The notes beneath the pieces are model-generated. The model searched no databases. It saw nothing but the letters and a program-made list of their open reading frames with translations, and was not told the DNA's origin. This document shows, piece after piece, positions 3,009 to 26,635 of a stretch of DNA of 64,000 bases (positions within the stretch are counted from its first letter, which is position 1; every line of letters begins with the position of its first letter). The position numbers and the translations under genes were made by a program. Origin of the DNA: Octopus vulgaris. Taxonomy: Eukaryota. Where the stretch lies: NCBI GenBank assembly GCA_951406725.2, contig OX597839.1, positions 26,660,001-26,724,000 on the forward strand, read 5' to 3'.

Positions 3009-4481
3009 TACATTCATACATATCCATCACAAATAGATGCAGCTTCTTTCATTTTTAATCCCACCTTTTTTTTCTTTGGTAAATCCTTTCCTCAAACAAT
3101 TCTACGTCAAAATCAATGAGAGTGACCATCATCATCATCATCATCATCATCAACAACAACAACATGAATATTACTATTATTATTATTGTTATCTTTACGC
3201 AGTGCAGGCAGCCAAGTGTGAGAGTGAGGTAGAAAAAGAGAGAGAGAGGGAGAGTGAGGTAGGGAGAGAGAGAGAGAGAGAGAGAGAGAAGAATTAAAAG
3301 TGAACAAGACAATCAATATGGGTACATCTTTTAGTGATTCTGGTTGTGTATTCCATGACCAAAATACTTACAGCTGGAATCAGTTTTTTTTTCTTCAGTT
3401 TCCACAGAAAAAGATATGCGTTTTCTGTAAACATTCCTTTCCCCCCACCTGCCCACCCCTCTCCGCCCCTTAATCTCTCTGGTCAACAAACATTTTCAGT
3501 GTCTTTGGAAATGAAGAATATTGCAGTTCCATTATAGGTGTAGGAGTGGCTGTGAGGTAAGTAGCTTGCTTACCAGCCACATGGTTCCGGGTTCAGTCCC
3601 ACTGGTAGCTCTATACAACTACCAAAATTTAGTTTAATTGAAAGAAGCGAAACAGAGATTAAAAAAACGAGGTACCTTTTGACAAATCACTCAAGGAGAC
3701 ACATCTACATCAAATGATGCACCACGACTGTTTGCACAGCATCTCACCCTCGAGGGACCAATGCATGATGGGTTTAAATGAAGGTTGTGATTACTAAAGA
3801 ATCTCATGAATTCCATTTTCTTTCTCTTTCTTTCATATCCATATCTTCTACTATAATAATACTTTTGTGGATTTCTCTGTCACAACATATGAATGAGAAC
3901 GGAAGGGGTGATAGATGAATAAGGAAGGGAGGAAGGGGTGATGTCAATGTGGTAGTGGGATGATGGAAGTTCTACAGTGGGAAAAAAAATCAAACAGCAT
4001 TTCAACTCTGTGTGAGTATATGTGTGTGTGTATGTAAAAGGCAGTCATGTGAACGTTTGTGTGTGTGTGTGTGCAATGGAAGTGGGATGGTGAACATTCA
4101 ATGCTAAAAAGAAAAGTCAAACAGCGTTTCAACCCTGTGTGAGTATATGTGTGTGTGTAGAAGCAAAATATGTGAATATTTGTATCTGTGATTATTAATT
4201 ACCTTATTTAGATATAAAATACTACAATTAGCTGTCATCTTTGGCTGCACGGGGTCAGCTAGTATTTTATAAACTCTATGGACATGAAGGAATTCCTGAA
4301 GTAAATCGAGTGGCAAATACCTCCATGCTGTTATTGACATCAGGTAGCCAAATACAGGAAGCAGGCTTTGAACAGCGTACTACACACACACATGCATATT
4401 TGTGGTCAGCTGTGGCTGGCCGATAGGTGTCTTCCCACTGCATTCAGGGAGTCTTCCTATGTTGCTTTGAAATTATATGTA

Positions 4482-7138: not shown

Positions 7139-7625
7139 TGTACATATATTTTATAGATAACACACACCTGTCTACTATGAATACACTAAGAGACTCTTTC
7201 AGTGTATATCTACCAAATCCACTCACAATACTGTTGTCCGCCAAGGTTATCACACAGTGGGATTGAACCTGGAACCATGTGGTTAGGAGGCAATCTTACC
7301 ACACGTCCTGCACCTATTCGTTTCCTTTCCTTTCATAAAGTTAACCGTTTCCTGTGTACTAAACTCACTAAATCTAAGCCTATCCTTTCTGCTTTGTATT
7401 TGGTCAGCATAAACTTAACTTTTATATTTTCTACTCATGGATCATTAAAAACTCGTTATCTTAAAATATTAAAATCCAATATTTGCACATTCCTAACATA
7501 GCGTTTTAACAGGGTTGAGTTAGGGCAGTGGGTTGGAAGAATTGTTTGTGTGTTTCAGGAAGTGCTTCGTGGCATTTCATCCGACATTAGATTCGGAGTT
7601 GAAATTCCACCCGGGTTGACGTTCA

Positions 7626-8880
7626 TTTGAAATCATCGTCATTGTTTAACGTCCGCTCTCAATGCTAGCATGGGTTCGACGATTTGACTGCTAAGACGTT
7701 CATTCTTTCAGGGTTGATAAAATATGTACCAGTTAAATACTGGGGGTCGATGTAATCGACTATCTCCCTTCCCTCAAAAAATACTGGCCCTGCATCAAAA
7801 TTTGAAATCATTGTCATTGTTTAACGTCCGCTCTCAATGCTAGCATGGGTTGGACGATTTGACTGCTAAGACGTTCATTCTTTCAGGGTTGATAAAATAA
7901 GTACCAGTTAAATACTGGGGGTCGATGTAATCGACTATCTCCCTTCCTTCAAAAAATACTGGCCCTGCATCAAAATTTGAAATCATTGTCATTGTTTAAC
8001 GTTCGCTCTCAATGCTAGCATGGGTTGGACGATTTGACTGCTAAGACGTTCATTCTTTCAGGGTTGATAAAATAAGTACCAGTTAAATACTGGGGGTCGA
8101 TGTAATCGACTATCTCCCTTCCCTCAAAAAATACTGGCCCTGCATCAAAATTTGAAATCATTGTCATTGTTTAACGTCCGCTCTCAATGCTAGCATGGGT
8201 TGGACGATTTGACTGCTAAGACATTCATTCTTTCAGGGTTGATAAAATAAGTACCAGTTAAATACTGGGGGTCGATGTAATCGACTATCTCCCTTCCCTC
8301 AAAAAATACTGGCCCTGCATCAAAATTTGAAATCATTGTCATTGTTTAACGTCCGCTCTCAATGCTAGCATGGGTTGGACGATTTGACTGCTAAGACGTT
8401 CATTCTTTCAGGGTTGATAAAATAAGTACCAGTTAAATACTGGGGGTCGATGTAATCGACTATCTCCCTTCCCTCAAAAAATACTGGCCCTGCATCAAAA
8501 TTTGAAATCATTGTCATTGTTTAACGTTCGCTCTCAATGCTAGCATGGGTTGGACGATTTGACTGCTAAGACGTTCATTCTTTCAGGGTTAATAAAATAA
8601 GTACCAGTGAAATACTGGGGGTCGATGTAATCGACTATCTCCCTTCCCTCAAAAAATACTGGCCCTGCATCAAAATTTGAAATCATCGTCATTGTTTAAC
8701 GTCCGCTCTCGATGCTAGCATGGGTTGGACGATTTGACTGCTAAGACGTTCATTCTTTCAGGGTTAATAAAATAAGTACCAGTGAAATACTGGGGGTCGA
8801 TGTAATCGACTCTCTCCCTTCCCTCAAAAAATACTGGCCCTGCATCAAAATTTGAAATCATCGTCATTGTTTAACGTCAT
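7626..8880. repeat. 175-bp tandem array (7 full copies plus a partial), built from two SINE fragments
   Basis: Unit starts TTTGAAATCA at 7626, 7801, 7976, 8151, 8326, 8501, 8676, 8851. Unit = inverted family-B tail + family-C 3' half. Confidence 0.95.
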
Positions 8881-9060
8881 TGTTTAATGTATCCCTCTTT
8901 ATTTGTTCTCTACTTATTATTTCTTTAACCCTTCTCTTCCTGGTATCTGCCTTTGAAATCAAATCTACTAATGGTTTTTTTAAATACTTAACGTTCTGTT
9001 TATCAATTAGGCAGTCATTGTAATTGTTATAATGTCTTGTTGCTGAGATAGGCTCTCTTT

Positions 9061-9142
9061 CTTTCCTGATGAGAAGATTGCATTTTACACCGTTTATTCC
9101 TTTGGAATAAAACCATGTTGTCTTCGAAACATATGTCGAAAG
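9061..9142 (+). ncRNA. Canonical minimal type I hammerhead ribozyme (Penelope/retrozyme-like)
   Basis: Stem I CTTTC/GAAAG; CTGATGA 9066-9072; stem II GAAGA/TCTTC with inner hairpin TTTATTCC-TTT-GGAATAAA; GAAA 9126-9129; palindromic stem III CATATG; GUC triplet with predicted cut after 9137. Confidence 0.85.
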
Positions 9143-9603
9143 TAAAAGAATTTTAATAACATCTTCGTTCAACTCCATTTATTTACTTAATGCTAGCATG
9201 GGTTGGACGATTTGACTGCTAAGCATTTCATCCGTACATACATAGATATGTGCAGAAAAAAAGAAAATGGAGTGGATACAAAAATGACATACATCAGCCG
9301 GTAGACATTCCCTTATGTCTATCTATTCTAAAACATAAGGAAGTATCATAGGAGTACATACACATGCAAAGACTGTGTGCTACACTAATGTATACTAGTA
9401 GTGCATAAAAGAGTCAAAGATCAGTTCCTTACGGCCGTTTCTACCCCCGATATCCTCCATGCTACCTCCTCCATCTCTTCAGTGTTCTGTAGGGATGAGT
9501 AGATAGAGTTTGGATGCTGGGTGTGCCTCTAGGCTTCTTACATATGCACACACAATCCACACCAGCATTGTAAAAAGGAAGTGAAATGAAGATGATTATA
9601 ATA

Positions 9604-11589: not shown

Positions 11590-13925
11590 TCATTCATCTT
11601 ATGACCTGTGTTCTATGATCTATGCTAAGTCTAGTCATTCATCTTATGACCTGTGTTCTATGATCTGTGCTATATCTAATCATTCATCTTATGACCTGTG
11701 TTCTATGATCTATGCTAAGTCTAGTCATTCATCTTATGACCTGTGTTCTATGATCTGTGCTATATCTAATCATTCATCTTATGACCTGTGTTCTATGATC
11801 TGTGCTATGTCTAGTCATTCATCTTATGACCTGTGTTCTATGATCTATGCTATATCTAATCATTCATCTTATGACCTGTGTTCTATGATCTGTGCTATGT
11901 CTAGTCATTCATCTTATGACCTGTGTTCTATGATCTGTGCTATGTCTAGTCATTCATCTTATGACCTGTGTTCTATGATCTGTGCTAAGTCTAATCATTC
12001 ATCTTATGACCTGTGTTCTATGATCTGTGCTATGTCTAGTCATTCATCTTATGACCTGTATTATATGATCTATGCTAAGTCTAGTCATTCATCTTATGAC
12101 CTGTGTTCTATGATCTGTGCTAAGTCTAGTCATTCATCTTATGACCTGTGTTCTATGATCTGTGCTATGTCTAGTCATTCATCTTATGACCTGTGTTCTA
12201 TGATCTATGCTATAGTCTAATCATTCATCTTATGACCTGTGTTCTATGATCTGTGCTATGTCTAGTCATTCATCTTATGACCTGTGTTCTATGACCTGTG
12301 TTCTATGATCTGTGCTATGTCTAGTCATTCATCTTATGACCTGTGTTCTATGATCTGTGCTATGTCTAGTCATTCATCTTATGACCTGTGTTCTATGATC
12401 TGTGCTATGTCTAGTCATTCATCTTATGACCTGTGTTCTATGATCTGTGCTATGTCTATCATTCATCTTATGACCTGTGTTCTATGATCTGTGCTATGTC
12501 TAGTCATTCATCTTATGACCTGTGTTCTATGATCTGTGCTATGTCTAGTCATTCATCTTATGACCTGTGTTCTATGATCTATGCTAAGTCTAGTCATTCA
12601 TCTTATGACCTGTGTTCTATGATCTGTGCTATGTCTAGTCATTCATCTTATGACCTGTGTTCTATGATCTGTGCTATGTCTAGTCATTCATCTTATGACC
12701 TGTGTTCTATGATCTGTGCTATGTCTAGTCATTCATCTTATGACCTGTGTTCTATGATCTATGCTATATCTAATCATTCATCTTATGACCTGTGTTCTAT
12801 GATCTATGCTATTCTAATCATTCATCTTATGACCTGTGTTCTATGATCTGTGCTATATCTAGTCATTCATCTTATGACCTGTGTTCTATGATCTGTGCTA
12901 TATCTAATCATTCATCTTATGACCTGTGTTCTATGATCTGTGCTATGTCTAGTCATTCATCTTATGACCTGTGTTCTATGATCTGTGCTATATCTAATCA
13001 TTCATCTTATGACCTGTGTTCTATGATCTGTGCTATGTCTAGTCATTCATCTTATGACCTGTGTTCTATGATCTGTGCTATGTCTAGTCATTCATCTTAT
13101 GACCTGTGTTCTATGATCTGTGCTATGTCTAGTCATTCATCTTATGACCTGTGTTCTATGATCTGTGCTATGTCTAGTCATTCATCTTATGACCTGTGTT
13201 CTATGATCTGTGCTATATCTAATCATTCATCTTATGACCTGTGTTCTATGATCTGTGCTATGTCTAGTCATTCATCTTATGACCTGTGTTCTATGATCTG
13301 TGCTATGTCTAGTCATTCATCTTATGACCTGTGTTCTATGATCTGTGCTATATCTAGTCATTCATCTTATGACCTGTGTTCTATGATCTGTGCTATGTCT
13401 AGTCATTCATCTTATGACCTGTGTTCTATGATCTATGCTAAGTCTAGTCATTCATCTTATGACCTGTGTTCTATGATCTGTGCTATGTCTAGTCATTCAT
13501 CTTATGACCTGTGTTCTATGATCTGTGCTAAGTCTAGTCATTCATCTTATGACCTGTGTTCTATGATCTGTGCTATATCTAATCATTCATCTTATGACCT
13601 GTGTTCTATGATCTGTGCTAAGTCTAGTCATTCATCTTATGACCTGTGTTCTATGATCTGTGCTATGTCTAGTCATTCATCTTATGACTTGTGTGCTATG
13701 ATCTTTCCTCATTCATCTTATGATCTGTGCCATGTCTAGTCATTCATCTTATGACCTGTGTTCTATGATCTGTGCTATGTCTAGTCATTTGTCTTATGAC
13801 TTGTGTTCTATGATCTGTGCTAAATCTAGTCATTCATCTTATGACTTGTGTGCTATGATCTTTGCTCATTCATCTTATGATCTGTGCTATGTCTAGTCAT
13901 TCATCTTATGATCTGTGTTCTATGG
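11590..13925. repeat. 45-bp minisatellite, ~52 visible copies
   Basis: Unit CATTCATCTTATGACCTGTGTTCTATGATCTGTGCTATGTCTAGT; highly homogeneous, degenerating at the right edge. Confidence 0.98.
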
Positions 13926-25439: not shown

Positions 25440-26635
25440 ATCCTTCTGTATGGCTGTGAGAACTGTACCCTTACAGTTGACATGGAATGACGGGCCCAGG
25501 CATTCGAGCACAGTTGCTTGAGAAGGCTGCTACACATCTGTACACAGAGCATACAACAAACAGCTTTCATCAGACAGCGAGTCCATGAATATGCTGGCAG
25601 ACAGGAACCACCGTTTCCCCCGGTAAAAACACCAAAGCATGCCTGCTACAGTCATGTCCTCATATATCCCGCCACAACTCCCTGTCAAAAACTGTCCTTC
25701 AGGGCACAATTGGGGGGGTCCTTAGTATGGCTGTGAGAGCTGGACTCCTATAGCTTACATGGAATGAAGGATCCAGGCATTTGAGAACAGTTGCTTTGGA
25801 AGGCTGCTATATATCCCATACGCAGAGCCCAAAGACAAAGCTTTCTTTGGACAACAATTCCATGAATATGTTGGCAGACAGGAACCATTCTTTCCACTGG
25901 TAAAAAATAACCAAAGCATGCCTGCTACATTTATGTATTTGCATCCCTCCACAACTTCCTGCCAAAAACTGTCCTTCAGGGCACAGTCAAGGGTCCCTAG
26001 TGACTTAGATCTTTCTGTAGTGGAGGCGCAATGGCCCAGTGGTTAGGGCAGCGGACTCGCGGTTGTAGGATCGCAGTTTCGATTCCCAGACCGGGCGTTG
26101 TGAGTGTTTATTGAACGAAAACACCTAAAAAGCTCCACGAGGCTCCGGCAGGGGATGGTGGTGATCCCTGCTGTACTCTTTCACCACAACTTTCTCTCAC
26201 TCTTACTTCCTGTTTCTGTTGTACCTGTATTTCAAAGGGGTCCGGCCTTGTCACTCTCTGTGTCACGCTGAATATCCCCGAGAACTACGTTAAGGGTACA
26301 CGTGTCTGTGGAGTGCTCAGCCACTTGCACGTTAATTTCATGAGCAGGCTGTTCCGTTGATCAGATCAACCGGAACCCTCATCGTCGTAACCGACGGAGT
26401 GCTTCCAAAGATCTTTCTGTATGGCCGTGAGAGCTGGACTCTTGTAGCTGACATGGAACGAAGGCTGTAGGCATTCGAGCACAAACGCTTTGGAGGGCTG
26501 CCACACATCCTGTACATAGAGCAGAGCTTTCATTTAGGAACTGGTAAAAAAAATGAAAGCATGACTTGGTATGGTCATATACTCGTATCCTGTCACAACT
26601 CCCTGTCCAGAGCCATCTTTCGCGGCACAGTTGAG
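25440..26635. repeat. Diverged ~280-bp tandem triplication
   Basis: GTATGGCTGTGAGA..ACATGGAATGA..GGCATT.GAG.ACA recurs at ~25448, ~25726 and ~26419; the third copy is split by a SINE. Confidence 0.85.
26020..26408 (+). mobile_element. tRNA-derived SINE (family D) with 13-bp target-site duplication
   Basis: Head GGAGGCGCAATGGCCCAGTGGTTAGGGCAGCGGACTCG...GTTTCGATTCCC; TSD AGATCTTTCTGTA at 26007-26019 and 26409-26421. Confidence 0.92.

Follow-up and report, generated by a model that had tools for sequence, protein, structure and literature searches.

The insertion and its host array

The window is the whole stretch of 64,000 nucleotides of Octopus vulgaris contig OX597839.1 that was analysed here, and it is rich in both microsatellites and dispersed repeats. 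It carries a 45-bp tandem array at 11590-13924 (about 47 copies, 93%, plus degenerate edges) and, at 25448-25985, two copies of about 277 bp which had no Pfam match and which we take, by their look, to be a LINE reverse transcriptase fragment. The locus of interest lies at the 3′ side of another tandem array, whose eighth unit is broken by an insert and then picked up again (Table 1). A preliminary description of this DNA had the array interrupted at about 8880 and terminated there by an insert of about 310 bp. The interruption and the resumption at 9190 are indeed found, but the 5′ break lies at about 8886, the insert measures 304 bp, and the bases counted before it belong to a 13-bp duplication of target DNA, of which they form the second copy. 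Nor does the insert terminate the array, because 34 nt of the unit still follow it.

Table 1. Features of the locus and of one sister family (window positions unless a locus is named)
Feature	Position	Strand	Remarks
Host 175-bp tandem array	7625..8878	.	period 175, 7.2 copies, 98% matches
13-bp tandem duplication of target DNA, 5′ junction	8862..8887	+	end overlaps first element bases (AA)
Insert, very probably a 5′-truncated EN+ Penelope-like element (Hydra-like)	8886..9189	+	304 bp, no tail
Type I hammerhead ribozyme motif	9061..9142	+	by core descriptor, cofold and covariance model
Stem I, 5′ arm CUUUC	9061..9065	+	5 Watson-Crick pairs with GAAAG 9138-9142
Catalytic core C3-A9, CUGAUGA	9066..9072	+	C3 = 9066
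Long stem II, 53 nt	9073..9125	+	helices 9073-78/9120-25 and 9080-83/9115-18; distal hairpin 9093-9100/9104-11
G12-A13-A14, palindromic helix III ACAUAUGU and predicted scissile C17	9126..9137	+	GAA 9126-9128, G12 = 9126
Resumed remainder of eighth array unit	9190..9223	+	34 nt, identical to units; true end of the array
Young U4C sister family	L059:1487-3820, L060, L067		ribozyme e.g. L067:1119-1224

The array as a whole is specific to this locus, and it is assembled from pieces of high-copy dispersed repeats; comparison with the genome finds a high-copy repeat that resembles the 3′ two-thirds of its unit at an 80-84% match. Against their majority sequence, single units show 0-5 differences in 175 positions. 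It is to be noted that a CATTTCATCCG motif is located just 5′ of the array region (7572-7582) and again directly after the last 34 nt (9224-9234), and this arrangement on both sides suggests that the array may have arisen through template switching inside a dispersed repeat.

How was the insert joined to the array? No target-site duplication flanks it at either junction. The 13-bp duplication on the 5′ side is a tandem one, 8 nt of the array unit are absent at the insertion site, and at the 3′ junction one A is common to the element and the target. The 5′ join likely used a common AACGT microhomology, prior to a C-to-T change at position 8888, since 23 of the 29 other copies compared below have a C where the window copy has a T. 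Measured against the commonest letter of its relatives, the window copy differs at 8 of 304 positions (2.6% divergence). Among the contigs of four public sequencing runs, no listed one bridges the junctions. Contigs of all four runs have loose ends at 9189, which in three runs continue as (TA)n or as the tail described below, and in the two largest runs depth drops about 100-fold towards the 5′ part of the insert. The family sequence is also present as contigs in two runs guessed to be RNA, which is not specific to the window locus.

Identity of the insert

A search of the 2.8-Gb assembly with the insert gave 1949 candidates, and the 40 that were scored include 39 other near-full-span copies with 92-95% identity to it. 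The 29 best-scoring copies besides that of the window were studied closely and are thus not a random sample. As many as 27 of them reach 21 to at least 1500 nt further upstream than the window copy does. In the longer ones this additional sequence codes for a GIY-YIG endonuclease, and ahead of it lies a reverse transcriptase that shows FDI, MGS and xDD motifs. One near full-length copy, L033, begins with a partial pseudo-LTR (pLTR) containing a ribozyme and a 152-nt spacer-tail, continues with an ATG 256 nt 3′ of the cut site and a broken ORF, and ends with a 3′ UTR of about 400 nt containing a second ribozyme, after which (TA)n follows; the overall order is pLTR-ORF-pLTR. Its ORF stop and C3 are 275 nt apart, 52 nt separate C17 from the element end, and the insert of the window aligns with this 3′ end at 93%. 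The insert starts about 95 nt past the ORF stop and finishes at the first 3′ terminus of the family (...TTTACTTA).

Copies of the family finish at either of two 3′ ends, separated by about 150 nt: 13 of the 29 copies stop at or near the end base of the window copy, and the other 16 have a tail of 135-158 nt beyond it. Two 3′ ends have been tied to two internal start sites of reverse transcription (PMC11167929). (TA)n adjoins 27 of the 29 copies. The window copy does not sit in (TA)n, and its route of integration was therefore atypical. An inverted piece lies close by in 9 of the 29 loci, partial pLTR tandems are seen in L033, L059, L064, L066, L067, L069 and L076, and the first 100 of 5835 genome matches to the ribozyme motif contain 15 inverted pairs. 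Such structural hallmarks are described for Penelope-like elements (PLEs) (PMC8557442; PMC11167929). Thus, the insert is very probably the last 304 nt of the approximately 400-nt 3′ UTR, or pLTR, of an endonuclease-bearing Penelope-like retrotransposon of Hydra-like type, with a type I hammerhead motif whose cleavage is predicted to need a dimer; the copy, standing alone, is likely inert. On comparison of the copies, the length of 304 nt is a mere 5′ truncation point. As a transposon fragment the locus is ordinary; the lineage it comes from is mildly unusual.

The preliminary description had left the choice between a Penelope terminus, which is the part that stands, and the monomer of a non-LTR retrozyme. 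The latter would be a non-autonomous unit of about 300 nt whose transcripts are cut by tandem hammerheads, closed into circles and inserted anew. Retrozymes are described as head-to-tail repeats of 150-450 bp (PMC7229834; bioRxiv 10.64898/2026.07.22.740005), a range that the insert matches in size as well as in low GC (PMC7229834); the ribozyme is of type I, and retrozymes have been reported as derived from PLE pLTRs (bioRxiv 10.64898/2026.07.22.740005). However, the 5′ boundary of the insert is not a common one, with only two of the 29 other copies beginning near it, and 56 loci, which overlap in part, contain 74 motifs with seven same-strand pairs, at distances of 2862-3683 nt. The search for tandem genomic copies that had been proposed came out negative, because none of the first 100 of the 5835 genome matches has a same-strand neighbour within 1 kb. 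The adjoining 175-bp array is itself without a ribozyme, according to a covariance-model scan of the window. With no head-to-tail ribozyme repeats of 150-450 nt in the examined loci, in these first 100 matches or in the window, the retrozyme monomer is largely refuted, and we consider it very improbable.

The hammerhead motif

The features by which a hammerhead is recognised are all present, namely C3 U4 G5 A6 N7 G8 A9, G12 A13 A14, the A15.1-U16.1 pair and H17; helices I and II flank the core, and stem I is open-ended. The complete core and the GUC site at C9137 had been pointed out before and are confirmed in the sequence. The hammerhead descriptor, which asks for at least 5 plus at least 6 pairs, is matched by none of 5000 dinucleotide shuffles of the insert. 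Homologous copies that conserve the core, on which the earlier proposal also depended, exist: 26 of the 29 other copies keep 11 of 11 conserved core bases. Divergence among copies is 0.9% at core bases versus 3.1% elsewhere, a difference which comes from only 3 changes in a biased sample and is not taken as selection.

The motif had further been called a textbook one with three perfect stems, and this description has to be given up. Stem I, with its 5 Watson-Crick pairs, is confirmed, and folding predicts that it continues beyond a bulge (9056-9060 with 9145-9149). The basal helix of stem II has 6 pairs, the last of which is U.G. Rfam, used with gathering and E-value thresholds, matched no hammerhead, likely because of the length of stem II, which takes up 53 nt and includes a second helix as well as a distal hairpin. 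Helix III is unstable in the monomer: three pairs would force a 2-nt loop, the fold with a 2-bp helix III (-13.2 kcal/mol) is 0.6 kcal/mol worse than the open one (-13.8), and the minimum free energy structure (-15.4) puts core bases into pairs instead. The folding energy of the monomer is no better than that of shuffles (z = -0.9; 34 of 200 fold equally well). The palindrome ACAUAUGU (9129-9136) is self-complementary, as had been noticed, and a cofold of two molecules supports the dimer that had been envisaged, giving a double hammerhead with 8 intermolecular pairs at -38.2 versus 2 x -15.4. Helix III is predicted by these folds to form only between two molecules.

Can such a partner be supplied at the locus? 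With the covariance model built here, 9061..9142 is the sole motif of the window, and no credible partner is found in about 49 kb upstream and about 55 kb downstream; in 40 kb further upstream the best E was 0.81. Lacking an ORF as well as a nearby partner ribozyme, the window copy would, if transcribed, cleave in trans only, and modelling points to a lone copy that is likely inert.

One may still suppose that the host has exapted the ribozyme for cutting or terminating a host transcript at the locus. It would fit such a role that none of the 8 differences of the window copy falls in 9061-9142 and that the site is an atypical, non-(TA)n one. But at 2.6% divergence about 2 changes would be expected in 82 nt, so that finding none there is not surprising; folding predicts a wrong structure for the monomer, and the partner motif was not found within about 100 kb. 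Also, an ORF and Pfam search of the window identified no gene, in that none of 109 ORFs of at least 70 aa and ordinary composition had a Pfam match, a search which short exons would escape; the link to a putative downstream gene on the same strand, drawn in the preliminary description, finds no support either. Exaptation is, in our judgement, extremely improbable.

Sister families

The genome was also searched with the N-terminal 147 aa of the ORF, which gave 2458 candidates, of which 150 were scored and 20 loci examined. Among those scored are many sister open frames of 778-908 aa, and their UTRs bear the same ribozyme on both sides. An alignment of 11 hand-picked family representatives shows no variation in the core except at N7 and, in one family, U4C. 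When the hammerhead structure is laid on this alignment, 92% of the cells pair, versus 36-54% in slid controls. Both-side changes occur at 9 of 24 pairs overall and at 7 of the 12 basal pairs of stem II; the number of double-change cells, 25, was reached in none of 500 pair shuffles, controls which ignore relatedness. Judging from this alignment, the sister families retain the ribozyme with compensatory changes in stem II. RNAalifold, unaided, recovers the long stem II and misses stem I. All 10 folded representatives have a stem II span of 53-56 nt. Cofolded as dimers, 8 of 10 form 8 helix III pairs and 2 of 10 form none, and the whole core stays unpaired in only 4 of 10.

The palindrome has different forms by family (ACATATGT, ACATGTGT and ACACGTGT), and its TA, TG and CG forms are all able to pair in a dimer. 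In the families with ORFs of 899/908 aa (L063-L065) it is ACACGTGT, a double change from ACATATGT with self-complementarity kept, and others have ACATGTGT. A degenerate pattern for the 3′ half of the motif has 5835 exact genome matches, and its reversed control has 0. In the first 100 of these matches the two free central bases of the palindrome are TA in 70, TG in 26, CG in 2 and CA in 2. All changes in the palindrome are transitions, which mutation bias or CpG decay could produce, and they are therefore supportive only.

The U4C family, whose ORF has 778 aa, has 628 motif matches; among the first 100 listed, 87 read CCGAAGA, 12 have U and 1 has A. Its intact ORFs, together with copies that are 98.7-99.2% identical, indicate a recent spread, which, as far as the sequences tell, likely took place with a weakened ribozyme. 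In a viroid, U4C reduces the in vitro activity and does not abolish it, and the viroid is still infectious (PMC3088659).

Two further observations were made among these loci. A cluster at G000:C20:23330076-23354577 (L046, L048-L051, L068) has at least 7 related ORF pieces, several of them in tandem with a spacing of about 3.2-3.7 kb; the ribozyme patterns used here have no match in L068. L070 has, on its + strand near 3719, a further sequence resembling a hammerhead, CTGATGA ... GAA ACAATTGT A, whose 8-nt palindrome is a different one; it is possibly another PLE family or chance.

The encoded protein and its placement

In other copies and in the sister families, a single ORF encodes, by motif, a reverse transcriptase together with a C-terminal endonuclease of GIY-YIG type. 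Pfam returned nothing relevant on the RT and EN pieces and two intact ORFs, and nothing meaningful was obtained from the PDB, searched by sequence and by profile with the octopod ORF. RVT_1 matched one of 17 homologues (E 6e-5). The RT identity thus rests on the motifs, on this one match and on likeness to published Hydra alignments, and is to be read as an assignment by sequence. Among named proteins, the nearest relatives belong to Octopus bimaculoides (61% identity, covering 44% of the query) and to Argonauta. Two homologues of the ORF (P0001 and P0015) are labelled 'GATA zinc finger domain-containing protein' at NCBI, apparently a mislabel.

To which clade does the lineage belong? Naiad was rejected, because the endonuclease is C-terminal. 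The Hydra clade has been defined by RWK, DKT, absence of CCHH, CxxC and CxH around E and N, a CxCx5C linker, (TA)n targets and canonical ribozymes (PMC8557442). In the intact octopod ORFs DKT and CxxC are found in 8 of 8 and CxH in 6 of 8, and CCHH is absent. RWL stands in place of RWK in 8 of 8, and RWK or RWR occurs in 14 of 15 aligned homologues. None of the 8 intact ORFs (L059-L066, L076) has the CxCx5C linker between RT and EN, which is seen in 14 of 23 database homologues, several of the remainder being partial proteins. Because this linker is absent, the lineage is filed as Hydra-like, by motifs, and not as a member of Hydra. The linker region in the octopod ORFs is of low complexity and rich in Asn/Ser, and in the family of the window it is an (AAT)n tract. 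In L013/L035 and L029/L034 this tract is interrupted by the 3′ end of a non-LTR retrotransposon, presumably of RLE type, an insert present in more than one copy with 95% identity over 2.4 kb.

A possible route of insertion, and its meaning

On the model of the PLE literature, the GIY-YIG endonuclease of the element would have nicked AT-rich DNA at the locus, and reverse transcription would have started inside a transcript longer than one unit, at a point 52 nt 3′ of the ribozyme site. Target-primed reverse transcription may then have copied 304 nt and halted, and repair may have tied the 5′ end to the array via microhomology, with 13 nt duplicated and 8 nt lost. In full elements, the two pLTR ribozymes, about 3 kb apart, would pair via ACAUAUGU and cut out unit-length RNA. 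This dimer cleavage is probably slow or protein-aided: PLE motifs of this kind were weakly active, with cleavage seen only when they were dimers or had a lengthened helix III (PMC4209133), and protein-assisted cleavage has been described that is not required for insertion in vitro (PMC11167929).

Is cleavage then what the motif is kept for? The long stem II and the palindrome might instead serve as an RNA handle for RT/EN or for RNA dimerisation, with cleavage weak or dispensable. The U4C family, with its intact 778-aa ORFs and nearly identical copies, spread recently; PLE ribozymes cleave poorly in vitro (PMC4209133); and ribozyme mutants of PAc from Anolis left in vitro insertion unaffected (PMC11167929). 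Yet the remaining core bases are invariant in the 11 representatives, and U4C reduces activity in a viroid without abolishing it (PMC3088659). A structural role is compatible with the Penelope identity and differs from our best explanation in mechanism alone; we regard it as less likely than not.

Taking the insert as a truncated PLE end, a wider reading can be put forward only tentatively, as possible rather than probable. There may be an octopod Hydra-like branch of several thousand copies with a distinct hammerhead, in which the covarying stem II of 53-56 nt acts as a protein-binding or dimer-stabilising domain, in which the zinc-finger linker has been lost yet (TA)n is targeted, and of which one U4C family was recently active. 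If this is true, the branch would be a natural series testing the need of PLE cleavage and of the linker for mobility. The Cys linker has been proposed to drive (TA)n targeting (PMC8557442), and elements that are without CxCx5C and still sit in (TA)n run against this proposed link. Wild-type, long-stem and U4C ribozymes in one genome, with intact ORFs, give modest leverage on the role of the PLE hammerhead, and Rfam misses a motif that has at least 5,835 genomic half-matches here. That PLE termini carry hammerheads is in itself nothing new, and truncated Penelope-like ends such as that of the locus number in the thousands. In O. vulgaris 31 recently active Penelope-like families have been reported, in an article whose main text is without mention of ribozymes (PMC13282606). 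Our literature search found no account of the long-stem ribozyme or the linker loss of this family, which may have an entry in a repeat library (Repbase, Dfam or that of PMC13282606).

Comparison with known systems

Among the systems described, the nearest is the Hydra clade, which includes Hydra-1_Obim of Octopus bimaculoides (PMC8557442). The (TA)n preference of that clade is found also here, the window copy excepted. The octopod ORFs have RWL in contrast to RWK, and Asn/Ser-rich low complexity in contrast to the CxCx5C linker. Hydra elements are mostly shorter than 3 kb, whereas the octopod unit measures 2.9-3.7 kb with an ORF of 778-908 aa, and the tail in the family of the window is about 150 nt in place of the usual 30-40. 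Stem II with its loop does not exceed 24 nt in any of the 26 rows for Hydra in File S2 of PMC8557442, against 53-56 nt here. Hydra-1_Obim, the one octopus family listed there, has the linker and a short-stem ribozyme that differs in sequence.

The metazoan PLE hammerheads (PMC4209133) are alike in being of type I, in their pLTR location, in the G10.1-C11.1 pair, in a 5-bp stem I, in a longer-than-usual stem II, in a palindromic helix III implying dimers and in occurring mostly as solo motifs in truncated copies. Unlike them, the octopod motif is without the extra base between positions 9 and 10.1, has an 8-nt palindrome, and builds stem II from about 12 basal pairs, an internal loop and a hairpin where those have 7-8 bp. 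Poseidon_Ac (PAc) of Anolis (PMC11167929) shares the two 3′ ends with an optional tail, AT-rich targets and the pLTR ribozyme; it belongs to a different clade, and its ribozyme overlaps the ORF start, unlike the octopod one, whose cut site precedes the ATG. Non-LTR retrozymes (PMC7229834) share with the insert a type I hammerhead, a similar size and low GC, and the octopod element is distinguished from them by the absence of short head-to-tail tandems and by the continuity of its other copies with an RT/EN ORF.
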